Of a DNA stretch of 64,000 bases, positions 14,017 through 50,041 are shown one piece after another. Made by a program: the position numbers and the translations under genes. The notes beneath the pieces are model-generated. The model was given only the letters and a program-made list of their open reading frames with translations. It ran no database searches and was not told where the DNA came from. Position 1 is the stretch's first letter; the number at the start of each line of letters is the position of its first letter. The DNA is taken from IMG/VR virus record IMGVR_UViG_3300028888_005256, one strand, 5' to 3'. Origin of the DNA: a virus (Duplodnaviria; Heunggongvirae; Uroviricota; Caudoviricetes).

Positions 14017-15687
14017 ATGTCGGCGAAAGAATTTTTATTTGGTGAAGCTGCAAGAAAGCGAATGCTTGAGGGCATCAATCAGCTTGATAGAATAGTCACT
14101 TGCACACTTGGTCCTTCTGGACGAAATGTTCTTATTAGTAAAGGGACTGCTCACCCTGTCATTACAAAAGACGGTGTTTCAGTAGCAAGAGAAGTTGATT
14201 TTGATGACCCTTACATGAAAGCTGGCTCAGATACAATCAAAGAAGCTGCAGAAAGAACAAACACAATGGCTGGTGATGGAACGACAACTACAATTCTTTT
14301 GAGCTCAGAATTGTCTCGTCAGGGTGTAAAGCTTATTTCTTCTGGATTTGACCCTATTGAAGTCCAGAAAGGCTTTGATGCAGCTTGCAATCTCGTTCTT
14401 GAAGAACTCGACAGTTTTAAGATTCCTGTAGAGTCTGGCGAAGACATTGAGCATGTAGCATTTGTCTCAGGAAACAATGATAAAGAAGTAGCAGCAATTG
14501 TTCGTGAAGCTTTTGAAGGTGTTGGTGACGGTGGCGTAGTAAATCTTGATACTTCACAGTCTAAGACAGGCAGAACATTTGTAAGATTCACTGATGGTAT
14601 GTCTTTTGGCAAAGGTATCAATGGCGGTGCTTATGTTACAGATTTGAAGAAAGAATCTTTTGAAGCAGACAATCCTCGTGTATTGCTCTCAAATTACACT
14701 CTTACTTCTAAAGAGATTCAGACAGAATTATCGAATGCATACAAAGACAAAGTGCCACTTGTAATTATTGCTCCTCACATTTCAGAGCAGGGTGAGACTG
14801 CTATGATTATGCAGGCAAAAAAGAAAACTGTCACTTGTGCACAGATCATTCCACCAGGAAACTCTCTTTATGAAGTTCAGGAAAAGATGAAAGACCTCGC
14901 TGCTATTCTTGGTTGTAAAGTGATTGAATCAGCTGATGATTTGTTTGAGTACAAATACGGTACTTGTGACCATATCTCATCAACACTTTACAAAACTGTC
15001 ATCTCAGGTTCTCATGGTACTGAAGAGCTCATCAATGAACGTGTAGAAGACCTCAAGAAACAGATTGAGAACGGCACTGCAGAAGACGTTGAAGTCGGAA
15101 TGTCTGAAGCAGAGATTAAAGCAATCAAAGAACGAATTGCAGCTCTTACAGGCGGTATCGCAATTATTTGCATCGGCGGAAACTCTGAAACTCGTGTAAA
15201 AGAGCTTAAAGACCGCTATGAAGACGCTATTCGAGCAGTAGAGTCTGCTATTGAAGAAGGCATTGTACCTGGTGGTGGATGTGCTCTTCTTAAAGCTGGT
15301 GCAAAAGTACGAAAAGAAGCAGCTTTGCAGGATGTGACAAGAGATTTTGAAGCTGGATTTGAAGCATTCTTGAAAGCTTGTAGAAAGCCTGTTACAAGAA
15401 TCATTTCTTCAATTTCAGATGATTACTCATACATCATTTCTAAGATCGAAAATGAAGCAGGCAAAAACTTCGGCTACAATGCAAAAACTCAAGAGTATGA
15501 AGAAGACATGATTGCTGCTGGAATTGTAGATCCGCTCAAAGTTACAAAATGGGCATTGAAAAATTCTACAGCAGTAGCTGGTATTTTCATTACTACAGAA
15601 TGTGCAATCGTTCCATCAGCAAGAAATGTTTCAGTTGAGCCAATTGACCCACTGAAAGATAGAAATTTCGGTATTGAGGGCATCTAA
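14017..15687 (+). CDS. groEL: GroEL/Cpn60-family chaperonin
   Basis: Matches GroEL along its length from memory of the E. coli protein (ITKDGVSVAREV, AGDGTTTT, TLGPSGRNV). GGAGATATA SD. Lacks the C-terminal GGM tail. No GroES-like gene adjacent. Confidence 0.9.
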   Translation: MSAKEFLFGEAARKRMLEGINQLDRIVTCTLGPSGRNVLISKGTAHPVITKDGVSVAREVDFDDPYMKAGSDTIKEAAERTNTMAGDGTTTTILLSSELSRQGVKLISSGFDPIEVQKGFDAACNLVLEELDSFKIPVESGEDIEHVAFVSGNNDKEVAAIVREAFEGVGDGGVVNLDTSQSKTGRTFVRFTDGMSFGKGINGGAYVTDLKKESFEADNPRVLLSNYTLTSKEIQTELSNAYKDKVPLVIIAPHISEQGETAMIMQAKKKTVTCAQIIPPGNSLYEVQEKMKDLAAILGCKVIESADDLFEYKYGTCDHISSTLYKTVISGSHGTEELINERVEDLKKQIENGTAEDVEVGMSEAEIKAIKERIAALTGGIAIICIGGNSETRVKELKDRYEDAIRAVESAIEEGIVPGGGCALLKAGAKVRKEAALQDVTRDFEAGFEAFLKACRKPVTRIISSISDDYSYIISKIENEAGKNFGYNAKTQEYEEDMIAAGIVDPLKVTKWALKNSTAVAGIFITTECAIVPSARNVSVEPIDPLKDRNFGIEGI

Positions 15688-28872: not shown

Positions 28873-29050
28873 TTAGTCTTTTCTAGCAAACATAACTAAG
28901 TACTTATAATTGAAATCTTTTTAGCGGTTTCATATGCAAAGGACTTGCAGTATATTGCAGGCGAAGAACTTCGTAATATCGAAAGTCGGGAAAAGTCGTT
29001 TAAGAAGACAGAGATTAGAAATCTTACAACAAAAAGGAAAACTCAAGAAA

Positions 29051-30823
29051 ATGGGTACAGTAACAGATAAAATGACAGAGCGCAAAAACGCTGCTGCAAA
29101 TAGAGACGCTGTTAGAAAGCAGCTTTACTTGAATGAGCGTGAATATCGTGCTTCAAAAGCAATCGATGCTTGGTCAAAAATCGCTCGTATTGGTGCAGGT
29201 CTTAAATCGCTCCCTCTCAAAGAGCAGCAGAACGTAGCTTTCAACCTTTCTCAGCAGGCTACATACATGAGCAAATTGAATGAGGCACAGTTGAGCCAGT
29301 CATTCAGCCAGTTTGCTCCTGAGAATATGTTGAGACTTGTTCGTCTTTCAATGCCTGGTGTATGTCGTAACAAGGTATTCACTGAGTTCGCTATGGAATC
29401 TGCAAAAGATTCTATCAAATACATCAAACCTGTAATTGATAAGACTCAGGGTGGATTCGACACAAACGATAAGCACACTCTTTACGGTCGTGAAGATGAT
29501 CCTTTTGGATATGACAACGGCAGCGGAGACCTCGTAAACACAGCTAACGTTGGTGATTACGATGCAGACTATCGCAAAGCTCTTTATGAGACACAGGAAG
29601 ATCGTCTTACTGGTGAGCTCACAAACTATCCACACGGTTCAGCTAACGGCAAAGTAGTTACATTCGACTTCACAAAGGTTGACAATGGTGACGAAATCAA
29701 GCTCCTTAAGTGGACTACAAAGGGCGGAAAAACTGGTGACAAACTTCTTCGTGGTTACACAGTAGTTTACGGCGACAATGAGACTGACCTCGTTGCTATG
29801 GAAAACAAGAGAGTTCCTGGAACATTCTTGGTTGGACACAAATACGAAGGCACTAAAGTTTCATACAAAGACGCTACAGACACAACTGCAGGTAACGAAC
29901 TTGTAGTAGACTTCACAAAAGCAAAGGCAATGCCTGCTAAGGTTTCTGCTTATGCTCGTGTTGATCTTGAAGACGATTTTGAGGGCACAGCTCTTGGTGA
30001 AGTTCAGTTGATCATGACTGACCACGACTTCAAGCCTCGTCCTACAATGGTTGGTGTTACTTGGTCACAGATGGCTGAAATCGTACTTGATGCTTCATTT
30101 GGTGTTTCTGCACAGGAACTCCTCCTTCAGTACGCAGCTGAATCTATCAGAGTAAACCTTGACTACCGTGCATTCAAACTTGCATACTTTGCTGCAAAAA
30201 CAAACAGCGATGCACACTATGTTGAATTCGATGCTGGCTACAACAGCTCAAAAGATGTAACTACAAAAGAGGGTTACATCCACAATGCTCAGACATTTGG
30301 TTCAGCAATCGATACTCTTTCTGACAATATGTTGAATGAAATCAACCGTGGTGGTGTTTCTCGTCTTGTAGCTGGTCCTTCAGCTGGTTCATACTTGAAA
30401 CTCAACGGTGCATTCAATACTCGTGGTAAGCAGGCTAACATCGGTATCCACCAGATTGGTGAATTCGATGGAATCCCAACATTCAAAGCTCCTTCACAGA
30501 TTATTCCTTCTGATGAGATCCTCACAGTTTGGAAGAACGATGAGAATGAGGGCGATGTTGCTATCGCATTCGGTACTTTGATCCCATTTGTAAACTCTGG
30601 TGTTATCCAGCGTAAGCAGATGTACAAAGAAGCTGGAATCGCATCTTACGGTGACTGGTCACTCTTGAACAAGAGATATCTCGGTATCATCCGCATCAAG
30701 AATATGAAAGATGTTACAGCTGATTTGAAGAATGTTAAAACACAGACTTCAGACAGCACAGTAGTTCTCGACAACGGAAACGCTGATCCTGAAACTCCTG
30801 ACACACCTGCAACTGGTGACTAA
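29051..30823 (+). CDS. putative major capsid protein (abundant structural protein)
   Basis: AAAGGAAAA SD then ATG 29051. Strongly biased codon usage (ggt/gct/cgt/ctt/atc/ttc), characteristic of highly expressed genes. Followed by one of the strongest terminators in the window. 590 aa. The capsid assignment is inference from expression signals and the nearby packaging genes. Confidence 0.45.
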   Translation: MGTVTDKMTERKNAAANRDAVRKQLYLNEREYRASKAIDAWSKIARIGAGLKSLPLKEQQNVAFNLSQQATYMSKLNEAQLSQSFSQFAPENMLRLVRLSMPGVCRNKVFTEFAMESAKDSIKYIKPVIDKTQGGFDTNDKHTLYGREDDPFGYDNGSGDLVNTANVGDYDADYRKALYETQEDRLTGELTNYPHGSANGKVVTFDFTKVDNGDEIKLLKWTTKGGKTGDKLLRGYTVVYGDNETDLVAMENKRVPGTFLVGHKYEGTKVSYKDATDTTAGNELVVDFTKAKAMPAKVSAYARVDLEDDFEGTALGEVQLIMTDHDFKPRPTMVGVTWSQMAEIVLDASFGVSAQELLLQYAAESIRVNLDYRAFKLAYFAAKTNSDAHYVEFDAGYNSSKDVTTKEGYIHNAQTFGSAIDTLSDNMLNEINRGGVSRLVAGPSAGSYLKLNGAFNTRGKQANIGIHQIGEFDGIPTFKAPSQIIPSDEILTVWKNDENEGDVAIAFGTLIPFVNSGVIQRKQMYKEAGIASYGDWSLLNKRYLGIIRIKNMKDVTADLKNVKTQTSDSTVVLDNGNADPETPDTPATGD

Positions 30824-31488: not shown

Positions 31489-31520
31489 GAAAAAAAAGAG
31501 AGGGCAGTGCACCCTCTCAT
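31489..31520 (-). terminator. rho-independent terminator (minus strand)
   Basis: GAGAGGGTGCACTGCCCTCTC followed by TTTTTTTT on the minus strand, after the SPFH gene. Confidence 0.7.
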
Positions 31521-31532
31521 CTCTTTTAATTA

Positions 31533-32453
31533 CTATTTCTGTGCAGGAATGTTAACAATTCCGCCAGCTGCTGTCAAAGGAATGTACTGTGGTACCAGAT
31601 GTCCGTCCCATTTCTCTTCATGAATCTTTTTAATTTCAAGTTCCTTCAACTGAATTTCCAATGCCTGATTCTGTGCAACCAATCTGTTATAAGCCGCAAT
31701 GCCTTCACCTTCAAGTCTCTTTGCTTCTGCTTCACCTTTGGCTTTAGCAATAGCTGACTGAGCATCAAGTTCTGCAGCCTGACGATTTGCTTCAGCTTCT
31801 TTTACAAGTTTCTGTGCCTTAGCAGCTGCAATATTTGCTTCCTGTTCTGCCTGCTTTACTTGCTGAGTGCGATTTGCTGTTTCTTTGATCTGCTTATCGA
31901 AGTCGTCAGACCAGTCCCAGTTTGTAATAGTTGTCTGACTGATTGCGATAGGGTACTTTGACATTCGATTTAGCATAGCATTTGCGACTTCTGATGTGAT
32001 TTCGTTCTGCTGAGCAACCAAATCGTAAATAGAATACTTACCTGTAGTTTCCTTCAATGATGCCTTAACATTGTCTCTCATTGCACTTTCAATAACGGAT
32101 CCATTTGCATACAATGTTACAATATCCTTTAGACGAGTCTCATCATATACATAGCGAACTGCAACTGTCGCGCCGACTGTCTGCATGTCTTTTGTAATTG
32201 CACCATCATTTCCAACACTGAATGTAACTTCATAAACTTTTGGCTCAAGACGGAATATGCGAGTATGAGTAACAAAAGGTGCTTTCCAATGCAAACCAGG
32301 CTGGATAATCGTATCCTGCATCTGACCAAGCTTTACATCAATACCACGTTCATTTGGATCAATTACAGAACAAGAATTGCAACAAGTAACGAGCAATACA
32401 AGTGCTGCAATTGTACCAATGACCAATTTCTTAATAAGTTTTTCCATATTCAA
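31533..32453 (-). CDS. SPFH/band-7 (stomatin/prohibitin/HflK-C-like) membrane protein, probable lipoprotein
   Basis: N-terminal signal/lipobox-like LLVTCCNSC; SPFH core (GIDVKLGQM...PGLHWKAPF...); C-terminal Ala/Glu/Lys/Gln-rich coiled coil. Confidence 0.65.
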   Translation of the reverse strand: MNMEKLIKKLVIGTIAALVLLVTCCNSCSVIDPNERGIDVKLGQMQDTIIQPGLHWKAPFVTHTRIFRLEPKVYEVTFSVGNDGAITKDMQTVGATVAVRYVYDETRLKDIVTLYANGSVIESAMRDNVKASLKETTGKYSIYDLVAQQNEITSEVANAMLNRMSKYPIAISQTTITNWDWSDDFDKQIKETANRTQQVKQAEQEANIAAAKAQKLVKEAEANRQAAELDAQSAIAKAKGEAEAKRLEGEGIAAYNRLVAQNQALEIQLKELEIKKIHEEKWDGHLVPQYIPLTAAGGIVNIPAQK

Positions 32454-32880: not shown

Positions 32881-33981
32881 CTAGTTCCACAAGTCTTTCT
32901 CCTTAGCTCTCAATTTTTCTGAAGTCAATGGACACTTATTTCCGCAGACATTACAAGTTGAAATAATGTTCATAGCTCCAAAGATATTGTAATGAGCAGA
33001 ACATTGTGTTCGCTGCTGACCCTTTACTTCTAGTACTCTTTTTTCTGCTTGATTCCCAGCCCATTCAGCTCCATCCATAGTGCAATCAACTACAGTTTCG
33101 GCAACTTTCCATTTTTTAATCTCGTCTTCAACATCATCGACATTTGGAAGCTCAATATGCTCTTTACGTGAAAGCATGCATTCAACCTGAATATTAAGCA
33201 TCGTTACTTTACGAGTAAGAGTGTAGCCGATAATTGCATTCAATTCATCAAAGCCATTTACAGCATCTGTAAGAAGAGGACCCATTGCGCAAATTTTTCG
33301 ACTTCCACAAATGCTTTCATAGTCTTTTAAGTTCCAATATCGAACATGACCAAGAGTTTCAAGATAGACTGATGCTTCAGAAGCATTTTTGATTTTTCCT
33401 GCATTTCGCAAAAGACTTATTGCTCTATCATAGAAATCGCATGCAAGCTGTAAGTCTTTGACTGTCCATTTTGAAAGTTTTTCTTCACATGCACCTGGAC
33501 GAAGAGATGTTCCAATAAAAATTTCTACATCATGCTCAATGCAAAATGTTACAATTTCTACCCAATTTGGAATAATTGGATTGTACTCTATGTCAGCAGA
33601 AAATATTCCGCCTCTTGAATTGACAATAAATCCATCTTTGATTGCATCATTGATAAGTTCTACAGGTGTTACATGAAAAGTCATTGCTCTTACACCGTAA
33701 GAATAGTGACGCTTGATTGTGTCCATGATAGGCTCATCAAACATCACAGACTCATACAAAGGCGCAGAACACAATTTGAAGTTAGCTTGAGGCTTGACTG
33801 AAACAGAGTTAGTCCAGTTGAAATGATCGCTCACTAATTCCCAAAACCACTTTGTTCGTTCTTCATCAATTGAAATGACTGACACATAATCAATTCCATA
33901 CTTGTTCGCAAGCTCAATTTTTCTGAGCTCATCTTCAGCAGACTGTTCGCTATAAGATAATCCACAATTCAATTTGAGCAT
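32881..33981 (-). CDS. compact ThiC/BzaF-family enzyme (HMP-P synthase-like, Fe-S cluster-binding)
   Basis: Conserved ThiC-family blocks as I recall them: SRGG (FIVNSRGGIF), LRPG (IGTSLRPGA), GPLLTD...GFDELNAIIGY, and a C-terminal CxxCxxxC cluster (CNVCGNKC). N-terminal region parallels the ThiC NANIG...EEEVEKL block. Only 366 aa. Confidence 0.55.
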   Translation of the reverse strand: MLKLNCGLSYSEQSAEDELRKIELANKYGIDYVSVISIDEERTKWFWELVSDHFNWTNSVSVKPQANFKLCSAPLYESVMFDEPIMDTIKRHYSYGVRAMTFHVTPVELINDAIKDGFIVNSRGGIFSADIEYNPIIPNWVEIVTFCIEHDVEIFIGTSLRPGACEEKLSKWTVKDLQLACDFYDRAISLLRNAGKIKNASEASVYLETLGHVRYWNLKDYESICGSRKICAMGPLLTDAVNGFDELNAIIGYTLTRKVTMLNIQVECMLSRKEHIELPNVDDVEDEIKKWKVAETVVDCTMDGAEWAGNQAEKRVLEVKGQQRTQCSAHYNIFGAMNIISTCNVCGNKCPLTSEKLRAKEKDLWN

Positions 33982-34006
33982 TTTTTTTTCTACCCCCTCT
34001 CTAAAA

Positions 34007-34465
34007 TCATTTTTTTAAAGAAACTTTCAAGAAGTCTCTTAATCGGTTAAGTTGTCTTATAAATTCTCTCTGTGTAAGCACTGTTTCTTGGATCTTATTT
34101 TTACCCATTGAATGAGTAAGCGTAGCATCTCCAGTAGCGAGCAAAGCTTTCTGAAAACCTGAATTTTTGCAAAGTTCGTCATAAGCTCTGGTAAGAAGAG
34201 CTTGATACTCTTCGCTGTCCCTTTTCATAGGAAGTCCTTGCCAATAAAGAGTTTGAGTTCTCCACCACTTCTTTTTCTTGCCCCTGAACTTGGCAGCTTT
34301 ACCAACAAGCTTACATACTTCTTTCTGCATGTCTGGATTTTCAAATTTCAATGATTGAAGAAATCCTTCCATTGAGTTACACTCTATGCCGTCTATGGTA
34401 AAAGGGTGCGGAGCAAAATTACTTAATGAGGCTGATGGGTAGCCTGTTTCACTTCCTATGTCCAT
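34007..34465 (-). CDS. NADAR (YbiA/DUF1768-like) domain protein
   Basis: LSNFAPHPFTIDGIECNSMEGFLQSLKF matches the NADAR signature (SNF.P.PF..DG....S.E..FQ..KF). Confidence 0.55.
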   Translation of the reverse strand: MDIGSETGYPSASLSNFAPHPFTIDGIECNSMEGFLQSLKFENPDMQKEVCKLVGKAAKFRGKKKKWWRTQTLYWQGLPMKRDSEEYQALLTRAYDELCKNSGFQKALLATGDATLTHSMGKNKIQETVLTQREFIRQLNRLRDFLKVSLKK

Positions 34466-36312: not shown

Positions 36313-36876
36313 CTAAAAAATTTTTGAAATTTGATTGTCTTTTAAGAGATAAAGTGTTCGAGGTGCTAGTATACAAGATTTGCCGATTTTGAGTTCTTTA
36401 TGAAAATGACCGATTATAAAAGAATTTCTCACAAGTATATGAATGATTCTATCTGGCAATCGTTTCTTGTTTATGCCTCTATAGGTTTCTGGCTTTATAA
36501 AAGATAAGATTTTTGCTATAAAAGAGTAGACTTTTGGGAATAACAAAAAACTCAGCTCAAGTTGATGGCCATGCATAAGAATTTTGTCTTCATACAATAA
36601 GCCTTCTAAACCACAATCAATGTCGTTGTTTCCCTTTACCATGATGTAGTTGTGGTTAATGAATTCTATGTATAGATCAGGATGTGCAACAGCTGCTTTG
36701 ACTCTGTCTCCTTGGAATGTGTCACCCAACAAAATCAAAGTTTTCGAGTTCTCTCTAAGCTGCTTAATAAGAGATTCTTCATTGTCGATCTTTTCTTGAC
36801 TCATGTGCAGATCAGCTAAGATCAAATAGTCGTCTTTCTTGAGTCTAAGAAACTTTTTGAAAAACAAATCCCTCAT
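36313..36876 (-). CDS. calcineurin-like metallophosphoesterase (YfcE/MJ0936-type)
   Basis: ATG 36876 after GGAGAA; motifs LADLHM, LGDTFQGD, GNNDID, HGHQL, GHFH. Confidence 0.6.
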   Translation of the reverse strand: MRDLFFKKFLRLKKDDYLILADLHMSQEKIDNEESLIKQLRENSKTLILLGDTFQGDRVKAAVAHPDLYIEFINHNYIMVKGNNDIDCGLEGLLYEDKILMHGHQLELSFLLFPKVYSFIAKILSFIKPETYRGINKKRLPDRIIHILVRNSFIIGHFHKELKIGKSCILAPRTLYLLKDNQISKIF

Positions 36877-37339
36877 TTGTGTTCTCCACAACTGTCAAGA
36901 AGTCTTTGTACTTTGTAGACAAAAGTGTCCACAGCTCTTTACTGAATTTGTTCCAGTCTTTGCGTTTTGCAATCACTCTATCATCGTCAGCTCTACCACG
37001 CGATGTAAAGTCGACATTTGTTCTTTTGTCATTAATCCAGATAATCGAGAATGGGCGCTTCCACTCATTATACATCTCTAGCACTTTTGAAGCTTGACAA
37101 GTGTCTTTGAAAGCATTGTCTATGATGTTTGAATGACCGAACATGATATTTTCACGAATTATGTCTGCTAAGTCATCGCAAGAAATCTTCATAGGGACTT
37201 CCTCTCCCCATTCTTTGTATTTCTTTCTAACACAATCACCTACATGAATTTCGTTTGCAGCTACAAATTGCTCAATAACTTTGCATAGTTCACTTTTGCC
37301 GCAGTATGATGGGCCTACTAAAAAAATGTCTCTTCCCAT
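36845..37339 (-). CDS. P-loop nucleoside/polynucleotide kinase-like protein
   Basis: Walker A GPSYCGKSE near the N-terminus; 164 aa; overlaps the downstream phosphoesterase gene by about 30 nt. Confidence 0.55.
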   Translation of the reverse strand: MGRDIFLVGPSYCGKSELCKVIEQFVAANEIHVGDCVRKKYKEWGEEVPMKISCDDLADIIRENIMFGHSNIIDNAFKDTCQASKVLEMYNEWKRPFSIIWINDKRTNVDFTSRGRADDDRVIAKRKDWNKFSKELWTLLSTKYKDFLTVVENTNEGFVFQKVS

Positions 37340-37914: not shown

Positions 37915-38219
37915 GATATTGCCCAGCCTACAAAGTCTTTTGCAAATTTTGGTTTTTCACATTGTTCATAGCCAAGACACATTTTCTTCTCTTTGTCGTA
38001 TTTAGCTGCAAACCAAATGTCTTCACCTATAATAGGATTAATTAACCCTTCATAGTGAGGCTCAATGACTGCATATTTGTAATATCCAGCTTCATTCATG
38101 TCTGTCCAATTTTCTGTAACAGCTTGAATTGCTTTGTCTTTAGAAGTGAAAAAGCCCCAGCAACGAGAATCATGATTTTCATCATCGCTAACTGAAGCAA
38201 TAAAATAGTACTTTATCAT
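37911..38219 (-). CDS. hypothetical protein
   Basis: 102 aa; ATGA overlaps at both ends. Confidence 0.45.
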   Translation of the reverse strand: MIKYYFIASVSDDENHDSRCWGFFTSKDKAIQAVTENWTDMNEAGYYKYAVIEPHYEGLINPIIGEDIWFAAKYDKEKKMCLGYEQCEKPKFAKDFVGWAIS

Positions 38220-40342
38220 AAAACTTCCTGACGTTCAGTACTTTTCCATTCAATGTTATCTACGATAAATATTGATCTGTTGCCTGTTTTAGGATCTACT
38301 ATGTGCTCAATTGGGAGCCTTATAGACATTTTGCTACACACACCTTGTGTTTTACGATTCAAGTAGTCACCATTTAGGCCTGAATTAATCCCAGAATCGC
38401 CTTCTGATAGATAAAGCGTATGATGAGCGCCTATATCAGGAGTATCTAGTCTTAATGTCACATTTGTAAATTTTTTTAAATTGCCTATATTCTTATTGTA
38501 GTTATGGCCAAGAGATTCTCCAAAAGGCGCTACAAAGAATCCAAATGCATTATGAAAATCATCACCGCTTGGGCAAAACGGCAACACAGCATATCTGCTT
38601 GCTTTACCACGTGCAGCAAAATCTTCTGAATAAAGACTAAAAACTTCACCCTTATAGCTAGAACATCTAGACCATTTACTGAAAACTTTGCAATCTTCGT
38701 AGAACACAGGTATATAGTCTTCATTGTTGCAAGCACATGTATCATCATCGGGAGAAACTTTATGTAGCATGCTACTAAAAATAGACGATGCGCCTCTCAT
38801 TGTAAAAGCTTGGTCATTGAGCTTATCAGACTCAACTCCTACTGGCATAAGCAATGGCATCGCAACTGCCCAAACTCTATAATACAGATAACCACAATTA
38901 ACGCCAGGCTCTGCCATGTGCACCTGCAGATAAGCATGAGGACCCATTACTATAGGGTGCATAAAGTATGTATCGATCATTGCTTTTGATCGAGATTGCA
39001 CAAATATGTAAACCAACTTTAAATGAGATGAATAGTTGTACATATGAATCCACTTGTTTGCGTTCTTTTTAGTAGGACCCAGCCAATTTCGCTCAGCTAC
39101 AGATATGCTACGAAGATCCCCATTGAAGCTGAAATCCCACAAAACGCTGCTGCTTATACAGAGCGCGCACTTACCAGCAGTGAAGAGTGTGTTGTCTTCG
39201 CCGCATATTTCCTGTGTAAGCTCTTTACGAGAGACATACTTTGTGTAAGTTTTCTCTACACAATTATAGTAATTTCCAATTACAGACATACTGTCTAGAA
39301 TCGTATTCTTGGAGTCTAAAAGCGGTATTGCAACAACTATTGAGTTCTGCCATATTGCATCTGGAATTTTTTCGTCATTGCTTACAGTCATGTAGCTTAC
39401 ACCGTTTGCGTCTACAACCGCATAAGATGAATCTCCTATACATAGAACAAGCAAATCTTTGTTACTATAGAGTCCTTCAGAACAATCAGAAATACCGTCA
39501 CTTGTGCAACACGGATAGCCTAAGTATCTGACGGCTTCTGCAGTCACACCACCTGATACAACAAGTATTGACCTCTCACTGCTGTCATTGCCCAAACTTA
39601 CAGCAAGATCTCTAGTACAACCAAAAGTAATGCATGGCAGCTTAAATGTCTCTTCATCACTTTGTAGCACAACTGGCAGATGCGCATCACCTGAAATTGT
39701 ATAATCGTCAAAACTGTCTGTCCTTGGTTTTGTTGTTAGCAGACCTTCACCGCAGCTAAATGACTCTTTCACTTTTCCGAGATCAGATTCCAAGCACCAA
39801 GAGTCATCACAAAAGCATTTGCGCTTAAAAACGGGTGTAGTGACCACTTGCAAAGTGAGGCCCTCAAAGCAATACTCTCTGCTATTATAGTTATCTAGGT
39901 GTTTGTACTGTGCTAAAATTTTTTTTGTTGCATACGCATACTCTGGTCTTTTAAAAAAGTCGTTCGAATCGTATTTCTTGAAATTCTCTCTTTCTACCAA
40001 AAGTGCATGCGCAGATGCGCCTGGTGCTAGAATAAAAGGGGCTATGCTATACCTAATAAATTGACCATCACCATAGAATCCTCCTGTGCCCATAACCATT
40101 CTAGGATATCTAGAATTATTATGTATAATGAAACCATTGAAGTGATACATGTCCTTTTGCGGCATTAAACGATGATATGTAATTTGATTTGCTGCTATTG
40201 AAGCCGGCACCTCTGTACTCATTTCTAAGTCATGCCTGAAAGCAAAGTCCTTGTAAACAATGTATCCCAAACCACTGACAGTATGATTGCTTTTATTATA
40301 AGTTACATTTAATTGTTGTCCACTTCCAAATTCAATTCTCAT
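38216..40342 (-). CDS. large Cys/Tyr-rich hypothetical protein (708 aa); paralog of 60876-61931 at the N-terminus
   Basis: About 35 Cys; N-terminus MRIEFGSGQ resembles MQIEFGNTA of gene 60876-61931. Confidence 0.5.
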   Translation of the reverse strand: MRIEFGSGQQLNVTYNKSNHTVSGLGYIVYKDFAFRHDLEMSTEVPASIAANQITYHRLMPQKDMYHFNGFIIHNNSRYPRMVMGTGGFYGDGQFIRYSIAPFILAPGASAHALLVERENFKKYDSNDFFKRPEYAYATKKILAQYKHLDNYNSREYCFEGLTLQVVTTPVFKRKCFCDDSWCLESDLGKVKESFSCGEGLLTTKPRTDSFDDYTISGDAHLPVVLQSDEETFKLPCITFGCTRDLAVSLGNDSSERSILVVSGGVTAEAVRYLGYPCCTSDGISDCSEGLYSNKDLLVLCIGDSSYAVVDANGVSYMTVSNDEKIPDAIWQNSIVVAIPLLDSKNTILDSMSVIGNYYNCVEKTYTKYVSRKELTQEICGEDNTLFTAGKCALCISSSVLWDFSFNGDLRSISVAERNWLGPTKKNANKWIHMYNYSSHLKLVYIFVQSRSKAMIDTYFMHPIVMGPHAYLQVHMAEPGVNCGYLYYRVWAVAMPLLMPVGVESDKLNDQAFTMRGASSIFSSMLHKVSPDDDTCACNNEDYIPVFYEDCKVFSKWSRCSSYKGEVFSLYSEDFAARGKASRYAVLPFCPSGDDFHNAFGFFVAPFGESLGHNYNKNIGNLKKFTNVTLRLDTPDIGAHHTLYLSEGDSGINSGLNGDYLNRKTQGVCSKMSIRLPIEHIVDPKTGNRSIFIVDNIEWKSTERQEVL

Positions 40343-40344
40343 TT

Positions 40345-41382
40345 TCAGCTCTTGAAAAATAATTCAAAGTACTCATTTCCAATGTCGCCAAACTCTTCAA
40401 CAAGTTTCTGTCTTTTGTCACTATCTGAAACTTTCTCACCAGTCTCAGATTCAATCATGCCAAAAGTAGACTTAATATTGTTAAGTTTCCTGTCTAACTG
40501 TTTAGTTCTGCGATTCCACTCTAATTCTGTAATTGGCTCTACTGGAAGTTTCTGTGTATCAAAAATATCGTAGACTCTATGATTTCTGCTATCACAAATA
40601 ACTACAATATTCTCATTTTTCTTCCAAGCAGTGTAATTTCCAAAGCAGTATTCAGTGTGGCCTACAACCTGTCTAGGATAGTATGCGTCTTCAAGAAGTG
40701 AATGCGGTCGAATCCACAAGCAAAATTGTGTCTTTTCGTCTCCGCTTCCTGAGAAATATCCATCCCAATCAAGTTTTTCATCGAATGAGCTTGAAAAATT
40801 AGTGGTTCCAGGAAAATGTGTTCTCTCATGCCAGCATTTATTCAAGAAATCTATAGAGTACTCTTTTGAGTCCCATTCTTTCACATCTTTATAGAGCTCT
40901 GCAAAATATGCATCAGCTTCTTCTTTAGAGTCAAATGCAGTCTTCTCCGCTTTCGGGTATTTTGTGTAAATATTATGCATGACATCACACATCAACTTCA
41001 CAGCAGTTTTAGAAAATCCTGCATGGCTAAAAACCCATCCGTCACATTCAAAAGCAAGATCTATAATGTCTTTGTTTGAGATAAATAAAGCTCTATATAA
41101 AGCTGCCATATTAGACTGATGACCACTACAGTTAGAGCCTTCTCTAGAACCTGAAAAATAACTCCAATCATGGTTCCCTAAAAGCAATTTTACTTTGTCT
41201 GGATTCTTTCTTTTGAAGTCAAAAATGTCTTTTACGTTCTCTTCTTGGTCAGGATGCTTGTTATTCCATGAGTCTACATAGTCTCCAAGAAAAACTACAT
41301 AATCTACTTCAGAAATTTTTTCTTTTGCAATTTCCCATTCATGAGAACCATGCACATCTGGTACTATAAGAATCTTTGCCAT
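40345..41382 (-). CDS. PPP-family (lambda-phosphatase/ApaH-like) metallophosphatase with C-terminal extension
   Basis: Motifs PDVHG, GDYVDSW, GNHDW (GDxHG / GDxVDRG / GNHE pattern). Start moved to ATG 41382; track start 41403 is TTG. Confidence 0.6.
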   Translation of the reverse strand: MAKILIVPDVHGSHEWEIAKEKISEVDYVVFLGDYVDSWNNKHPDQEENVKDIFDFKRKNPDKVKLLLGNHDWSYFSGSREGSNCSGHQSNMAALYRALFISNKDIIDLAFECDGWVFSHAGFSKTAVKLMCDVMHNIYTKYPKAEKTAFDSKEEADAYFAELYKDVKEWDSKEYSIDFLNKCWHERTHFPGTTNFSSSFDEKLDWDGYFSGSGDEKTQFCLWIRPHSLLEDAYYPRQVVGHTEYCFGNYTAWKKNENIVVICDSRNHRVYDIFDTQKLPVEPITELEWNRRTKQLDRKLNNIKSTFGMIESETGEKVSDSDKRQKLVEEFGDIGNEYFELFFKS

Positions 41383-41396
41383 AATTAGAAATATTA

Positions 41397-41428
41397 ACAG
41401 CAAAAGGGAGACAAACTTGTCCCCCTCT
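41397..41428 (-). terminator. rho-independent terminator (minus strand)
   Basis: GGGGGACAAGTTTGTCTCCC then TTTTGC on the minus strand, between the AAA ATPase and the phosphatase genes. Confidence 0.55.
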
Positions 41429-43393: not shown

Positions 43394-46300
43394 ATGTTAA
43401 ACGAGAAGCAACAATCATCTTTACTATACAAGCATTTTATGGGCATGGGCTCTACTCGTCTTCAGAGAGAATTCTTCGAGGAGTCTGCTAAATCTGCTTT
43501 CGCTGTTCTTCCAAAAGATATTTGGATGTATGCAGAAATGATTCCTAATGGATCTGAAGTTTCAGGTGGACTTGAATCTCTTGAAAAGATCAGAGACCTT
43601 TCAGCTGAGAATCCTTTGTTCACTTGGTTCAAGACTGAGTCTCAGCCAAAGTACCCAATTGTAAAATTTTGGGATAAACTTAGACTTACGCCTGTCGATG
43701 ATGGCACTGACAATTCATTCTATGTAAAAGACGAGAATGGTAATTTTATACGCAATGCGATCCCATTCAATTACTATGAAGACTATTATGCGTACTCTCT
43801 TTATACAGAAGACGGACGACAAATTCCTTTCGGCGTAGGTGATTGGACTTTTGATGCATCTTCAGGCATCTTGTCTTTCTTTGACATTATTCCTGATGGC
43901 ATAGACCATAATCATCCACCATTGTTCTCTTTCTATCAGTACGCAGGTGAATGTGGCATCAAGAGTTCTCTAGATGATTTGTTTGAGTCTGCAGTTTTGC
44001 CAATTACAAATTTCTGCATCCCAGAAGGCTCACCATTCATTTCTCTGAATAAAGACAATGAAAAGACTCTTCTTGAGCATATCAAAGATCAGACAAACAA
44101 AGTAGAAGACAATTATCTCTCTACTTATGGCTTTGACGGTGGTGATAAGAATGAAGGTGTTGCTTTCTCATGGGAAAGAGTCTTTCCTCTAATCTACACA
44201 AAGACAAAAGATTACGTAAAGGGCTATGATTCTAGTGCGACAGCTCAGATTGTTGTTACTTACTCTAGCAAATATGCAGTTTCTGAAGCAGAAAATGATT
44301 TCTTCTCTGTAGGCTTCGTTTCACATAATTGCTCTGATGAGAAGTTCACTCTCAAGCTTTCTGAGGGAAATATCGAATCTTGGGCAGACGGTGAGCTGAT
44401 TGATTCTAAAGCATTCAATTCTCAGCCAGATACAGCAAACATAAAGCTTGCATTGAACAATGGCTTCTGTTATGTACAGAAAAAGTCGAGCTTCACAGAA
44501 GATGCTGAATTTGAATTCTCTGTAGCAAACAGCATTGGTGAAGACGGAAAAGTAACTGGATTGCTTTTGTACTGGTCTTCAGCTAAGATGGACTATCTCC
44601 CATTTGTGCCTAAAGAAGAAGACCACTATGATTTCGGCTTCCCAATTGTAAGCCTTATTGGTAAGATTCCTCCTTCAATGAAGATGGACTCTACAGCTCT
44701 TACATCATTTGAAGATCAGATTACGCCAGATTACTATGGTCCTAGAGTTGCAGTTGCAGTAATTGGTCTTGAAGACGGTGATGCAACAAAATCTGCTGAC
44801 TACATTGTAAAGAATAAGCCTGGTTTCTATTTAGATGAGATTCTTACGGCAGTAAGAGAAGACCATCACTACGGAAAAGTTTATCTTCGTTCTGGCATCT
44901 ACAAGACAACGGGCACTCTTGATTTAAGTGATATCATCATTGAGGGCGAGGGCGACACTAAGATTGAAGGAGACACTCTTACAATAAGCAATGGTGAGAG
45001 AGACTACAATCATACATGCATTTCTCATATTGAACTTGACTTCAAAGACATAAGCATCTCTAATGACAACTGTATCATTGCAAATGTTTTCGCAAATTCT
45101 GCTACAATCACTGTAGAAGCAGATGTACAGAAGTTCATTCTTGAAAATGCTACAGTAGACACATTAAAGATTAAAGCTTCTAATCCAGCTGATTTTAGTC
45201 TAAAAGTTTTCAGCAGCAGATTCAGAAATGTAGAGATTGAATCAGCAAATGTAGTATTTGCAGATAATGTTGTAACAGGTTCATTGACTCTTCCAGAGAA
45301 TTTTAATTCTTACATCAAGTCTTCTTACATCAATAAAGTCTTCAATTTTAGCACAAAAGCAAAAGTTGACGGCACTTTCATAAATGAATATGATTTAGAG
45401 TCAGTTGCTGAGCATGGCATTACACCTATCGGTTCAGACAAAGAAGATACAACTGGACGATTTGCAATTTTTGATAAGAATGATTTCAAAAGCACTCGAT
45501 ATGCTGAATTCAAAGAGCCATTCCACTACAATAGAGACACTGATGTAATTGAGCTTCTTTATGACAAAGACTATGTAGACCTTGATGCAGATGGCAGACT
45601 TTATGTTACAGCAGACACAAAGCATTTGCACCCTGCACCAGATACAGTATTCTCTCGTGGAGATAATGCTTCAGATGATAATAAAGAATTCTTGCCTGCA
45701 AAGCAGTACAATTACAAAGATCATACAATAGACGATGTTCTTAAAGATTTGTGGCATGAAAAGGCCGACTTGACTGCTAGTGGAAAGATTCCTTTGCAGC
45801 AATTGCCAGATGCAGTAGCTTATGGTGGATTGATGTATGTAGGAAACTGGTCATTTGAAGACCATGATGGTGAGTACCCTACATTCAATGATGCAAACCA
45901 ATTCTTGTCTGCTGACAACACTAATAAAGCAATTCAGCGTGGTTGGTTCTGGGTTGTATCTGCTTCTAAAAATAAAGATAGCGATAGCGAAGAAGAAAAC
46001 ACTCCAGTAGCAGTTCAAGTTGCTAAAGATGGTGTAGAATATACTGCAGGTGACTGGGTAGTTTACTGTGGCGGTGAGAAACAATGGGATAAGCTTGATA
46101 GAGCATTCTCTGATCCAGCATACTCACCTCTCCCCTCTTCATCAAAAGCAACAGACGAGCCAGATAAGCCTTGGTACTGGAAAAACGATAGAAGGGGTGG
46201 AGCTCTTGAGCTTGGTGGCGATACAATCATCACTGCTTTCAATAAAGTAAATGATCAGCTCAGAAAACTTGAGCCTAGAAAGCCAGACAGTATCAATGAC

Positions 46301-47830
46301 AGTGAGCTCGTTCTTGATGATAAAGACATTCCAAAAATTAAGTTCCGCAAAATGACTTCCGGTGACACGCCAAGCGAAGAAGTTTATGAAGCTTATGATG
46401 GTTCTTACTTTGATGGTGAGAAGTCACTTCACTACACATTGAAGAACAAAAGTCCTTCTGACTCTAATTTGATTTACTTTGGCGATAGCGCAAAAGTTTC
46501 TGTAGAGCTTAATGAGCAAACTATTCTAGATGATTACAATGTAGGTGAAGCTTATAATGCTGGCGGAATTCATATCTCTGCACCAAAAGATGCATTTGAG
46601 AATGAAGTAATGGGCAAGAGCTTCTGGAACGGTATCTCAATTGATATTGATGTTCCAGTAAGAGACTACAATAAGCTTGAAGAGTCAGACACATCAGAAT
46701 TCGTACCTGGTGTAGATAATAATTCTCTAAAAGTTTCTCTTACAAATGTAAGAATTGACGGAGATGATTCTGAGCAAATGTCTTCTTACAATGGAAATGC
46801 TTTTGCAAGATTCAGTTCTGTGATACCATACTTCTATCTTAATGATAGCTCGTTATTCAATGTCAGAATTGCAAATCAAGACAGAATAAATGCTTTGATG
46901 AAAAGAGACATTTGTTCAGGAATAGAACAAACTACTCTTGACAAGATTGAGAAACTTGAATTCTCTGGTGAGCTGACAGGCATTTGGTCTAACATTCTTC
47001 ATGAAAGTCGTTTAATAGACTTCAAGGTAATGCTCAATGACAAAGATGTATTCTGTGAGACAGTCAATGGCGATACTGCTTTGAGTTTCAAGAACACTGC
47101 ACAAAGTGGCAGCCATGCAAATTACAGTGCCGACTTTGACATTGATATGCCAATTACATTTGACAAAGACATTATTCTTACTGAAGATGATGAGCTTGAA
47201 TTGTATGCTACTTTCTATAGTGTAAAAGGAACTACAGAAGTGAAGATTGCTTCATTCAAGAATGTCTTTAGAATTGATGGAGTGTCTGAGAAAGAAAGAC
47301 TTACTGCAGGCTCATTTGATGAGATTCATGACATCAATTATGGAGAAGCATTCAACAGCAATTCTCCTGAAGATGGTGCAAGCATTAAGAAAGGCAGAAT
47401 GCTTGAGAATGGAAAACATATTTATGAGTACTCTCCTGGTACTGCATGCTTCTATCTTGGCGAATTTGACAACATTGCAGGCTTTACAGTAGAGATTCAC
47501 ATCCCAGAAGATAAAGAAGTCCCTGCTGTAGATAAATTTACTGGTTCTACTGAAGGCCTTAGACTTCAATGTAGATTTGAGACTGAGCATGAAGATTCTG
47601 GCTCAGGATTGACAATGAGAGATGCAGCTTCTCCTTGGCTTGATTGCAACTCTCCAGTTGGCTGGTATAATAAGCCTGCTAATGATTTAGATCCAGTTAT
47701 GTATGCAGCAAAGTCTACAGCTCTTAGAAAGAGAGTTTCTTTCGGAAGACTACTTTACTCTGGAAAATTGTACATTCGCTTGAAGACAGAGTTTGAATTC
47801 ACTAGTGTTGAGTTGGTTGAGGTTGTTTAA
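43394..47830 (+). CDS. very large structural protein, probable tail fibre/tail spike (1478 aa)
   Basis: Repetitive beta-strand-like blocks (ISNDNCIIANVFANSATITVEADV...) suggest a beta-helix. Assignment is inference from size and composition. Confidence 0.45.
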   Translation: MLNEKQQSSLLYKHFMGMGSTRLQREFFEESAKSAFAVLPKDIWMYAEMIPNGSEVSGGLESLEKIRDLSAENPLFTWFKTESQPKYPIVKFWDKLRLTPVDDGTDNSFYVKDENGNFIRNAIPFNYYEDYYAYSLYTEDGRQIPFGVGDWTFDASSGILSFFDIIPDGIDHNHPPLFSFYQYAGECGIKSSLDDLFESAVLPITNFCIPEGSPFISLNKDNEKTLLEHIKDQTNKVEDNYLSTYGFDGGDKNEGVAFSWERVFPLIYTKTKDYVKGYDSSATAQIVVTYSSKYAVSEAENDFFSVGFVSHNCSDEKFTLKLSEGNIESWADGELIDSKAFNSQPDTANIKLALNNGFCYVQKKSSFTEDAEFEFSVANSIGEDGKVTGLLLYWSSAKMDYLPFVPKEEDHYDFGFPIVSLIGKIPPSMKMDSTALTSFEDQITPDYYGPRVAVAVIGLEDGDATKSADYIVKNKPGFYLDEILTAVREDHHYGKVYLRSGIYKTTGTLDLSDIIIEGEGDTKIEGDTLTISNGERDYNHTCISHIELDFKDISISNDNCIIANVFANSATITVEADVQKFILENATVDTLKIKASNPADFSLKVFSSRFRNVEIESANVVFADNVVTGSLTLPENFNSYIKSSYINKVFNFSTKAKVDGTFINEYDLESVAEHGITPIGSDKEDTTGRFAIFDKNDFKSTRYAEFKEPFHYNRDTDVIELLYDKDYVDLDADGRLYVTADTKHLHPAPDTVFSRGDNASDDNKEFLPAKQYNYKDHTIDDVLKDLWHEKADLTASGKIPLQQLPDAVAYGGLMYVGNWSFEDHDGEYPTFNDANQFLSADNTNKAIQRGWFWVVSASKNKDSDSEEENTPVAVQVAKDGVEYTAGDWVVYCGGEKQWDKLDRAFSDPAYSPLPSSSKATDEPDKPWYWKNDRRGGALELGGDTIITAFNKVNDQLRKLEPRKPDSINDSELVLDDKDIPKIKFRKMTSGDTPSEEVYEAYDGSYFDGEKSLHYTLKNKSPSDSNLIYFGDSAKVSVELNEQTILDDYNVGEAYNAGGIHISAPKDAFENEVMGKSFWNGISIDIDVPVRDYNKLEESDTSEFVPGVDNNSLKVSLTNVRIDGDDSEQMSSYNGNAFARFSSVIPYFYLNDSSLFNVRIANQDRINALMKRDICSGIEQTTLDKIEKLEFSGELTGIWSNILHESRLIDFKVMLNDKDVFCETVNGDTALSFKNTAQSGSHANYSADFDIDMPITFDKDIILTEDDELELYATFYSVKGTTEVKIASFKNVFRIDGVSEKERLTAGSFDEIHDINYGEAFNSNSPEDGASIKKGRMLENGKHIYEYSPGTACFYLGEFDNIAGFTVEIHIPEDKEVPAVDKFTGSTEGLRLQCRFETEHEDSGSGLTMRDAASPWLDCNSPVGWYNKPANDLDPVMYAAKSTALRKRVSFGRLLYSGKLYIRLKTEFEFTSVELVEVV

Positions 47831-48710: not shown

Positions 48711-48746
48711 CGAAAGGCTCCCTTTTGAGGAGCCTTTATTTTTTAA
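48711..48746 (+). terminator. rho-independent terminator
   Basis: AAAGGCTCC-cttttga-GGAGCCTTT followed by ATTTTTT. Confidence 0.7.
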
Positions 48747-50041
48747 TTTTTAGCAGCTGCTGCTATTGCAGGAAGCCCTTTTTCTTGATAAGCAAGATTC
48801 TTGACTTTGAATGAAACTCCGATATTTTTCATTTTATCGCAGTTCATTGAGCGGACTACTACGCCTTCATGCTGCATATAGTCTTTCCAAAGAACTTCAT
48901 TTTCAGCAGGCTTGTAGTTTAGAATAAGCTCACCATCTTTGATTTTCCATGAAGCACTTTCTGCGTATTTGACTGCAGCCTCAATGTTTGGCATAATGCT
49001 GCCAAGACGAACATCTCTTTCAAGAATAGGAACTGTCTTAAGACCAAGCTCATTACAAGCAGCAATCATATCATCAAGATTGAGCTGAGTTTTTGTTACC
49101 ATGTCTTCAATAAGATAGACATACCAGTCAACTTCTTTAAGATTGTAGATGTTGTTCTGAATTCCTGGACCACACTGTTCAGCTTGTATAATGAGAAGCT
49201 TGCCTGTTTCTTTGTAGAATTTAAGCAATTTCTTTTCAAGGTCATGCTTTATGCAAAAATTCCAAAAGTCATTGTTGCATTTGAGCTTATACGCATTGTT
49301 GCGAGAACATACATAAAAATTCTTGACTTTCTTAAGTCTTCCATTTAATCGAAGAACATCAAAAGCAGTAGTTGCAGATTGTCCTTCCATCTTCGCAGAA
49401 ACATAGACTTTGTCACCTGCAAAAATAGTAGTAGCATGCTTCATATTCTGGATTGTTGTCTCGTCAGATTTGTGTACTTCGCCAACAGGGAATCCGCCTG
49501 CTGAATTCTGATGATTTCTTTGCCAAATAACACCGATCCATCTTGTCAATTTATGTGACAAACAAAATTTCACCCATTTAGGATAAGCTTTTTTAGACTT
49601 TGTAGTCGGAGATGCTTCTTCCTCAGTCTCGTATTTACGAATCTCAAGAAGGTCTGTTACATCATCGCCAGCTTTAAGCTTTTTGACAATGTTTTCATCT
49701 AAGCCAGCTTCATTGAGCTTTACGATAAGTCCCCAAGACTTTACACGGTCGCCTTCAATCTCTTCGCCGTCTACGATAACTGCTTTCTTTCCCATAGTCA
49801 TTGGTTTGATGATAAAACCATTCCAAGATTCGTTGAAGCAGCGTTTGCGCAAAAACTCCCATTGCTCTTTTACAGGAAGGATAGAGCCCTCTTGGATAAA
49901 AATAGCAAGGTCTTCTGGCTTAAGGTCTACAGACGTAATAGCCTCGTAGCCATTCTCTTTCATTGTGACACATTGAATTTTGTCTTTCTGAAACATTTTC
50001 TGAGTTGACTCAATTGTCACAACACTAGCAAGATCTCTCAT
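48743..50041 (-). CDS. ATP-dependent polynucleotide ligase-like nucleotidyltransferase
   Basis: Candidate motif I KxEG (VSAKMEGQS), motif IV-like EGVVVR, motif III-like LLIIQAEQCGPG. Confidence 0.4.
   Translation of the reverse strand: MRDLASVVTIESTQKMFQKDKIQCVTMKENGYEAITSVDLKPEDLAIFIQEGSILPVKEQWEFLRKRCFNESWNGFIIKPMTMGKKAVIVDGEEIEGDRVKSWGLIVKLNEAGLDENIVKKLKAGDDVTDLLEIRKYETEEEASPTTKSKKAYPKWVKFCLSHKLTRWIGVIWQRNHQNSAGGFPVGEVHKSDETTIQNMKHATTIFAGDKVYVSAKMEGQSATTAFDVLRLNGRLKKVKNFYVCSRNNAYKLKCNNDFWNFCIKHDLEKKLLKFYKETGKLLIIQAEQCGPGIQNNIYNLKEVDWYVYLIEDMVTKTQLNLDDMIAACNELGLKTVPILERDVRLGSIMPNIEAAVKYAESASWKIKDGELILNYKPAENEVLWKDYMQHEGVVVRSMNCDKMKNIGVSFKVKNLAYQEKGLPAIAAAAKN

Follow-up and report, generated by a model that had tools for sequence, protein, structure and literature searches.

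To our knowledge, enzymes of the ThiC superfamily carry out only two reactions, the conversion of aminoimidazole ribotide (AIR) to 4-amino-5-hydroxymethyl-2-methylpyrimidine phosphate (HMP-P) and the conversion of AIR to 5-hydroxybenzimidazole (HBI), both counted among enzymology's most complex radical rearrangements. The 64,000-nucleotide stretch of viral DNA analyzed here at its full length (the window; IMG/VR record IMGVR_UViG_3300028888_005256) encodes a compact ThiC-like protein of 366 amino acids (aa), which represents a previously undescribed, phage-restricted variant of the superfamily with its own pocket and its own, partly fused gene module.

In the solved ThiC complexes, AIR and S-adenosylmethionine (SAM) lie beside the C-terminal cluster-binding domain with Met572 packed on the adenine, while Asp383 protonates N3 of the aminoimidazole and Tyr449 stacks on the C5-amino group of AIR (PMC4389238). 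Mutant work indicates that very few pocket residues govern product choice (PMC11117688, PMC12661338). The D383A variant of Arabidopsis ThiC (AtThiC) uses up AIR without producing HMP-P and D383N gives a partial rescue only (PMC11117688); BzaF has Asn here, and the residue has been suggested to direct whether the radical adds to C2 or to C5 of the imidazole (PMC12661338).

The phage protein and its partners probably form a pathway (probability about 0.6) in which a radical reaction of the ThiC type would turn a phosphoribosyl substrate into a new phosphomonoester, which a partner kinase would then pyrophosphorylate.

The compact ThiC-like protein and its active site

The gene lies on the minus strand and is preceded by a candidate ribosome binding site:

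32881..33981, minus strand: compact ThiC-superfamily radical SAM enzyme, 366 aa, predicted (beta/alpha)8 barrel followed by an Fe-S cluster-binding tail at the C terminus
33993..34000, minus strand: Shine-Dalgarno-like AGAGGGGG, 11 nt 5′ of the ThiC-like ATG, read directly from the sequence

The protein contains the motifs S122-R123-G124-G125, S159-L-R-P-G163, G234-P-L-L-T-D239...A-I-I-G252 and a C-terminal C343-N-V-C346-G-N-K-C350. It matches the Pfam ThiC_Rad_SAM model (PF01964; E=9e-29, 100.9 bits with a cutoff of 25) over residues 4–353, corresponding to profile positions 63–416 of 420, and the same domain is present in all 37 homologues. Phmmer comparison with the PDB matches it to Arabidopsis and Caulobacter ThiC, and a family profile matches PDB ThiC chains with E=5e-30; identity to the solved ThiCs is ~20%. 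An AlphaFold2 model built from 38 family sequences has a predicted local distance difference test score (pLDDT) of 88.9, a predicted template-modeling score of 0.86 and eight beta/alpha repeats. Foldseek searches with this model place thirteen ThiC chains on top (E=4.5e-18 to 1.8e-15, TMq 0.67–0.74), led by Arabidopsis ThiC 4S26 (E=4.5e-18, TMq 0.74); the first hit of another fold class is at 3e-6. The relationship to ThiC is more than a coincidence of motifs and is far above chance. An initial annotation, made from the sequence alone, had quoted the motifs SRGG, (D/S)LRPG, GPLxTD...AIIG and CNVCGNKC in proposing a compact ThiC/BzaF-family enzyme; all are there, the profile and Foldseek searches align the protein to ThiC with a TIM-barrel fold, and the superfamily part of that label is well founded.

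The more specific part of the label does not hold. The NCBI ThiC equivalog models NF009895, TIGR00190 and NF006763 score 101.8, 69.6 and 51.9 bits against cutoffs of 410, 460 and 650, respectively, and the BzaB model TIGR04386 scores 61.8 bits against a cutoff of 700. Because these scores are far under the cutoffs and a Thr occupies the position at which Asp and Asn discriminate between ThiC and BzaF, the protein is a member of the ThiC superfamily and apparently not an orthologue of either. The CX2CX3C motif that had been singled out is present and is not unusual, as the same spacing is found in true short-type ThiCs that pass the equivalog models (e.g. CTMCGELC of P0048; 545 bits).

The N-terminal ~62 positions of the Pfam profile are missing, and the protein begins at barrel strand 1. 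In family-profile alignments the canonical short ThiCs align from residue ~63–67 and the phage family from residue 1–7. The short length is genuine.

Contacts defined in AtThiC (PMC4389238) were mapped onto the phage protein via HMMER alignments and checked against about 160 superfamily members aligned with MAFFT. All of the contacts to the AIR phosphate are kept (Tyr286=Y76, His322=H103, Ser342-Arg343-Gly344=S122-R123-G124 and Arg386=R161), as are both contacts to the ribose hydroxyls (Asn228=N5 and Glu422=E208). The two His residues that coordinate the SAM-anchoring additional metal are invariant (His426=H212 and His490=H275), and Glu489 (E274) and R161 are also invariant in the phage family. 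The cluster cysteines C343-x2-C346-x3-C350 are invariant or at least 90% conserved, so that the Cys triad and the SAM-binding residues singled out for checking in the initial annotation are all retained. The cysteine acting in the late steps (Cys474 in Caulobacter, Cys483 in Arabidopsis, C268 here) is kept in the core family, and the distant compact members P0037–P0044 have Leu at this position.

Asp383 and Tyr449 are the sole two base-specific (aminoimidazole) contacts, and both are replaced. Asp383 corresponds to Thr158; at least 90% of the phage family has Thr there, and distant members have Gly, Met or Ser. Tyr449 corresponds to Cys231, which is Ser in some members. C327, an invariant Cys additional to the cluster triad, takes the place of a Trp that is conserved in ThiC. 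At the four positions Asp383, Tyr449, Cys474 and Trp, all of the equivalog-passing ThiCs tabled have the pattern D/Y/C/W, as against T/C(S)/C(L)/C in the phage family. The half of the active site that generates the radical and anchors the phosphoribosyl group is thus kept, and the half that decides the product is present in a third version.

Among members with as little as 33% identity to the window protein, 36 positions are invariant and about 56 nearly so, and these include every catalytic, metal and cluster ligand. The ThiC-like enzyme is predicted to be a catalytically competent, minimal member of the superfamily.

Metagenomes hold many further ThiC-like clades of 360–405 aa with pockets unlike those of either ThiC or the phage clade, including P0050, P0053, P0056, P0060, P0073, P0074, P0083, P0100, P0102, P0103, P0112, P0141, P0146, P0153 and others. 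Defined by the four positions listed above, examples are the groups T/S-M-N-C and T-G-S-W. Scores were obtained for P0050, P0053, P0056 and P0060, all of which are under the ThiC equivalog cutoff, and the three with a public name (P0050, P0053 and P0074) are labeled ‘phosphomethylpyrimidine synthase’.

The kinase-like and phosphoesterase partners

Open reading frames (ORFs) were called in 13 distinct loci encoding the ThiC-like protein (a further record, L005, duplicates the window), and the proteins encoded within ±10 kb were clustered by all-against-all BLAST. Three families recur broadly: the ThiC-like protein (13/13 loci), a P-loop protein of 149–169 aa (11/13) and a metallophosphoesterase of ~190 aa (9/13). 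The next most shared neighboring family is present in four loci only, and the flanks are otherwise unconserved. The two partner genes in the window are as follows:

36845..37339, minus strand: adenylate/UMP-CMP-kinase-like P-loop protein, 164 aa, with motifs GPSYCGKS, HVGDCVRK, IIDNAFK and SRGRADDD
36313..36891, minus strand: small calcineurin-type metallophosphoesterase, 192 aa, YfcE/LpxH/PdeM type, overlapping the 3′ end of the kinase gene

Wherever the kinase gene occurs, it shares the strand of the ThiC-like gene and is 0–3 kb away. Its start overlaps the stop codon of the ThiC-like gene in loci L016 and L017, and in L011 it follows that gene by 52 nt. The window has it 2.9 kb upstream, so that the linkage has outlived a rearrangement; no strong terminator is found between the two genes there. 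The phosphoesterase gene usually begins at the end of the kinase gene, with a 47-nt overlap in the window, where it is 2.3 kb from the ThiC-like gene. Four natural fusions of the ThiC-like protein to the same kinase domain (P0042, P0045, P0046 and P0047; 486–540 aa) preserve both domains, and the ThiC-like and kinase families co-diverge down to about 24% identity (Spearman 0.56, 55 locus pairs).

Hidden Markov model and tblastn follow-up adds a truncated kinase gene in L013 and a phosphoesterase remnant in L017, which brings the totals to 12 of 13 loci for the kinase and 10 of 13 for the phosphoesterase. These have the appearance of module decay: only the first ~39 kinase codons are left in L013 (12128-12268), and only a phosphoesterase fragment in L017 (2052-2327), where the ThiC-like gene itself is without a clean translation.

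Nucleoside monophosphate (NMP) kinases convert a phosphomonoester to a diphosphate. The partner family has an invariant P-loop (G9, G14 and K15) together with GDxxR (G34 and R38), IIDNxxK (D74, N75 and K78) and RxRxD (R114, R116 and D118) motifs. Its profile aligns over the full length with adenylate kinases (Mycobacterium tuberculosis AK, E=5e-7, and AK1) and with UMP/CMP kinases, with the NMP-binding GDxxR and the lid RGRxDD in register with the adenylate kinases. The best Pfam matches are sub-threshold (AAA_17, AAA_18 and AAA_33), and two of the 14 members match the ADK model (PF00406) with E about 0.03, short of its cutoff. An AlphaFold2 model has a pLDDT of 89.8, and all of its 50 best Foldseek neighbors are adenylate or UMP/CMP kinases (best TMq 0.73), with no polynucleotide kinase among them. 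The partner thus resembles the adenylate and UMP/CMP kinases in its P-loop, GDxxR, DGxxR-like IIDNxxK and RGRxDD lid, and its predicted fold is nearest to AK1, M. tuberculosis AK and the Dictyostelium UMP/CMP kinase; it differs from them in being shorter, in having Lys for the second Arg that contacts the NMP phosphate, and in being found only adjoining or fused with the ThiC-like gene. The family is as rare as the ThiC-like one, with seven clusters in 5.8 billion sequences, on contigs shared with the ThiC-like family, and it is not found in deposited phages.

The metal-binding motifs of the calcineurin type are all invariant in the phosphoesterase, which is related to YfcE, PdeM and LpxH in a generic manner only. 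It is a third, less strictly conserved member of the module.

Three further features lie around these genes in the window:

34007..34465, minus strand: T4 gp30.3-family gene (distant NADAR), Phage_30_3 E=7e-58
31533-32453, minus strand: SPFH/Band 7 protein, 306 aa, with an N-terminal hydrophobic segment; phrog_200 ‘lipoprotein’
31498..31518, minus strand: strong intrinsic-terminator-like hairpin (9 pairs, G+C-rich) followed by T8, with a terminator score on the plus strand as well

The hairpin ends a minus-strand block containing the kinase, phosphoesterase, gp30.3, ThiC-like and SPFH genes. The SPFH gene follows the ThiC-like gene two genes downstream; L019 has a homologue 2.5 kb downstream of its ThiC-like gene, and the other loci have none. 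A conserved small redox or accessory ORF was considered and rejected, as the downstream ORFs of 58–92 aa are non-homologous across loci, and no ferredoxin-like motif recurs among them. No thiamine, cobamide or purine genes are present in the Pfam overview of the window or in any locus, and PADLOC gives no defence or anti-defence match for the three module proteins.

Other genes near the module stand out in some loci. In L020 (10416-11000, plus strand) a second, different P-loop kinase of 194 aa matching AAA_28 (the NadR-type ribosylnicotinamide kinase family) begins 11 nt after the fusion gene P0046 and is followed by a membrane protein gene. An ADP-ribosylglycohydrolase gene (PF03747) is located a few kb downstream of the module in L006 (12697-13452) and L020 (12758-13558), two loci that are only distantly related. 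Downstream in L001 there is an NAD/nucleotide-salvage-type cluster (HAD_SAK_2, Nuc_deoxyrib_tr, CTP_transf_like, CoaE and isochorismatase).

Distribution and phage setting

The ThiC-like family is small, with about 40 clusters in all. A large word-indexed search yields 37 clusters of 335–367 aa, all metagenomic, some on contigs of 94, 215 and 362 kb; the window protein is itself on a contig of 326.5 kb. An exhaustive profile search of 1.84 billion representatives recovers ~14 from the compact clade before the canonical ThiCs start. One locus was found in IMG/VR, on a 259-kb viral contig, and seven in JGI metagenomes, and at least one sample is from human gut (Hadza). None of the ten family clusters looked up has a public name. 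The initial annotation had not recognized a phage copy as previously described, and this is upheld: the ThiC-like protein has no match in PHROGs, nothing ThiC-like is among its matches in BFVD, DNA and protein searches of 50,697 deposited phage genomes (INPHARED) reveal no true relative, and a literature search found no description of phage ThiC-like enzymes. Tblastn hits in the deposited phages are to bacterial-type thiC only, at <29% identity, in records that are apparently bacterial or contaminated. Relatives are also absent from 185,579 prokaryotic species genomes (one per species), and a prophage or cellular origin was rejected on this ground. The clade appears to be restricted to deeply divergent, uncultured jumbo phages.

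The window encodes a phage-type primase, helicase and RNA ligase, ATPases, GroEL and T4 gp30.3, of which the following are located by PHROG matches:

1766-3661, minus strand: DNA helicase (phrog_62, 3e-57)
9566-10789, minus strand: DNA primase (phrog_47, 6e-35)
14017-15687, plus strand: GroEL-type chaperonin, 556 aa (phrog_5725, 9e-121)
48743-50041, minus strand: RNA ligase (phrog_968, 1e-40)

Related loci contain a family-B DNA polymerase, topoisomerase II subunits, a T4-type RNA ligase 1 and an NAD-dependent DNA ligase. PHROG scans of 20 large and mid-size window ORFs reveal replication, nucleotide metabolism and GroEL functions only, with no structural hallmark genes, and the phage assignment therefore rests on these genes together with gp30.3, the IMG/VR relative and the lack of cellular relatives.

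The Pfam overview of the window also contains a dUTPase, an HD-domain protein, an N6/N4 DNA methylase and an RMKL-like methyltransferase, as well as a single Cpn60_TCP1 match (5.5e-62) that presumably corresponds to the GroEL ORF. At 38216-41403 (minus strand) a 352-aa ORF matching a PHROG metallo-phosphoesterase (phrog_1649, 2e-7) precedes an ORF of 708 aa that neither Pfam nor PHROG matches. The pair resembles the T4 gp47/gp46 (SbcD/SbcC-like) nuclease; the 352-aa ORF is called as a 345-aa Metallophos gene in L005, and L016 and L004 have SMC_N/AAA_23 proteins at a comparable position. A 1478-aa ORF (43394-47830, plus strand) has no Pfam or PHROG match, and most of the other large ORFs (943, 790, 719, 619, 582 and 550 aa) are likewise unmatched. 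A tblastn search of the 50,697 phage genomes gives no hit for the 629-aa ORF at 28934-30823.

The proposed pathway and its comparison with known systems

In the proposed pathway, the C-terminal CX2CX3C motif would hold a [4Fe-4S] cluster, SAM would be anchored via a second metal on H212 and H275, and the two would together generate a 5′-deoxyadenosyl radical, as the conserved residues suggest. This radical would abstract a ribose hydrogen from a 5-phosphoribosyl substrate held by the contacts that ThiC uses for the phosphate and ribose hydroxyls of AIR. Because the equivalents of Asp383 and Tyr449 are replaced, by Thr158 and Cys231, the rearrangement to HMP-P or HBI would probably not be completed; either an AIR-derived radical would be channeled to another phosphomonoester, or a different base would be accepted, which would probably be bulkier because the three substitutions are all to smaller residues. 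The phosphate would stay on the product, and the dedicated partner kinase, as its fusion and linkage suggest, would make the diphosphate. The role of the phosphoesterase is more speculative: it may trim phosphate or pyrophosphate, either supplying the monophosphate substrate or clearing a competing or by-product nucleotide. The end product, also speculatively, could be a non-canonical nucleotide, an activated heterocycle or an antimetabolite. As the pocket differs and the partner is nucleotide-kinase-like, the product is probably a previously undescribed phosphorylated compound and not a thiamine precursor. The suggestion in the initial annotation that a trimmed ThiC fold has been co-opted for a new reaction fits the altered base pocket and is the best supported of its readings.

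A more specific version, in which the three genes constitute a third ThiC-family transformation of a phosphoribosyl substrate whose product is activated as a diphosphate, either a non-canonical nucleotide for phage nucleic acid or an activated heterocycle or antimetabolite for host takeover, is tentative and would be given somewhat less than even odds. Nonetheless, a phage clade in which exactly the product-choosing residues are rewritten is a concrete candidate for a third chemistry, and the kinase fusions strengthen the case. Should a nucleotide analogue or an activated heterocycle prove to be the product, the pathway would represent a new way of modifying phage nucleic acid or manipulating the host. 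The clade would also offer enzymologists a minimal ThiC scaffold of 340–370 aa.

Several observations weigh against the proposed pathway. Neither the kinase nor the phosphoesterase gene is within 10 kb of the ThiC-like gene in L007, and L016, L019 and L020 are without the phosphoesterase. No reductant partner (flavodoxin or ferredoxin) is conserved near the ThiC-like gene. The C-terminal cluster-binding region (residues ~300–360) is the lowest-confidence part of the model, with pLDDT 54–82. The assignment of substrate and product draws on conservation patterns; the substrate could still be AIR, and Thr158 might be compensated by another acid that is invisible in a sequence alignment. Given the Leu at the Cys474 equivalent in P0037–P0044, members of the clade may differ in their chemistry. 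Lastly, the kinase profile also matches the kinase domain of Clostridium thermocellum Pnkp over the full domain length, more weakly than the adenylate kinases (E=3.7e-5).

The main rival is that the ThiC-like protein is a true, shortened HMP-P synthase encoded by an auxiliary metabolic gene that raises thiamine synthesis in the host, with the kinase standing in for ThiD to give the diphosphate HMP-PP. The ThiC fold, the retention of eight of the ten AIR-contacting residues and of all SAM, metal and cluster ligands, and the presence in the core family of the Cys474 equivalent needed in late steps are consistent with such an enzyme, and a kinase acting on a phosphomonoester is what HMP-P requires. 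However, the residue whose change in D383A abolishes HMP-P formation is Thr and Tyr449 is Cys, the equivalog scores are 52–102 bits against cutoffs of 410–650 with the N-terminal ~62 positions gone, and neither the 64-kb window nor any locus contains ThiD, ThiE, ThiM or other thiamine genes, which together make this explanation unlikely.

The match to Pnkp raises the alternative that the kinase and phosphoesterase are an RNA end-healing pair and that the ThiC-like enzyme acts on RNA or tRNA in phage RNA repair, such as by mending or modifying a damaged nucleotide. The combination of a P-loop kinase with a calcineurin-type phosphoesterase resembles Pnkp, one of the sub-threshold Pfam matches is AAA_33, and RNA ligase genes are present in the window (48743-50041) and near the ThiC-like gene in L007 and L019. 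Yet adenylate kinases score better with both the GDxxR and RGRxDD motifs aligned, the top 50 structural neighbors are all NMP kinases, and the solved ThiC complexes suggest that there is no room for a polymer substrate; we regard this alternative as quite improbable.

A BzaF/BzaA/BzaB-type HBI synthase supplying the lower ligand of a cobamide would belong to the same superfamily, and would share a non-acidic residue at the Asp383 position (Asn in BzaF). The position is Thr and not Asn, however, Tyr449 is also lost, the BzaB score is less than a tenth of its cutoff (61.8 against 700 bits) and there are no cobamide genes nearby. HBI is an unphosphorylated base, and because it carries no phosphate this explanation leaves the conserved and sometimes fused kinase unaccounted for. 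It has very little probability.

The initial annotation had paired the ThiC-like protein with the adjacent NADAR-like N-glycosidase in a two-gene nucleobase-modification or salvage pathway. The two genes do adjoin, are co-directional and are 25 nt apart, and gp30.3 has weak NADAR similarity (18.8 bits to the NADAR model, with a cutoff of 35.1). The ThiC-like gene, described as upstream, is downstream in the direction of transcription, with gp30.3 on its 5′ side. But gp30.3 is a widespread T4-type family (Phage_30_3, phrog_652) and is a neighbor in this phage only (the window and its duplicate L005), with no homologue within 10 kb of the ThiC-like gene in any of the 12 other distinct loci. Functional coupling is rejected by this comparison of 13 loci: the adjacency of gp30.3 is incidental and outside the conserved module, and the partners are instead the NMP-kinase-like protein and the small metallophosphoesterase. 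Such a two-gene pathway is very improbable.

A decaying or non-catalytic remnant of a host-derived ThiC, to which the N-terminal truncation, the strong divergence and the ~20% identity to solved ThiCs might point, is scarcely credible, because the catalytic residues are strongly conserved (all of the ligands being among the 36 invariant and about 56 near-invariant positions), the family is kept across phages, the fusions keep both domains and the predicted fold is confident.

Of the described systems, ThiC (PF01964; 4S25–4S29 and 3EPM–3EPO) is similar to the phage enzyme in its (beta/alpha)8 barrel and C-terminal Fe-S extension, and its non-canonical anchoring of SAM by a two-His metal, its phosphate and ribose-hydroxyl contacts and the Cys474/483 equivalent are kept in the phage enzyme. 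In contrast to plant and proteobacterial ThiC, the phage enzyme wholly lacks the long N-terminal domain. It also differs from ThiC at Asp383, Tyr449 and Trp, in scoring 4–12 times under the equivalog cutoffs, in being found on jumbo-phage contigs only, and in its linkage or fusion to an NMP-kinase-like protein and not to thiamine genes. BzaF and BzaA-BzaB provide a precedent for a ThiC paralogue with a non-acidic residue at the Asp383 position, which in BzaF is tied to a different product; the phage clade departs from BzaF in having Thr and not Asn, in also losing Tyr449 and in its lack of cobamide context.

The module can also be compared, by analogy only, with T4 gp42 (dCMP hydroxymethylase), gp1 (deoxynucleoside monophosphate kinase) and gp56 (dCTPase), which similarly combine a modifying enzyme, an NMP kinase and a phosphohydrolase; as in T4, the phage module is within a region of replication and nucleotide metabolism genes. 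The proteins are unrelated to those of T4, the chemistry would be that of a radical SAM enzyme, a ribonucleotide and not a deoxyribonucleotide would be expected, and the comparison is limited in that no modified base is known for these phages. The proposed passage of product from the phage enzyme to its partner kinase likewise resembles the step from ThiC to the kinase ThiD, or that from gp42 to gp1.

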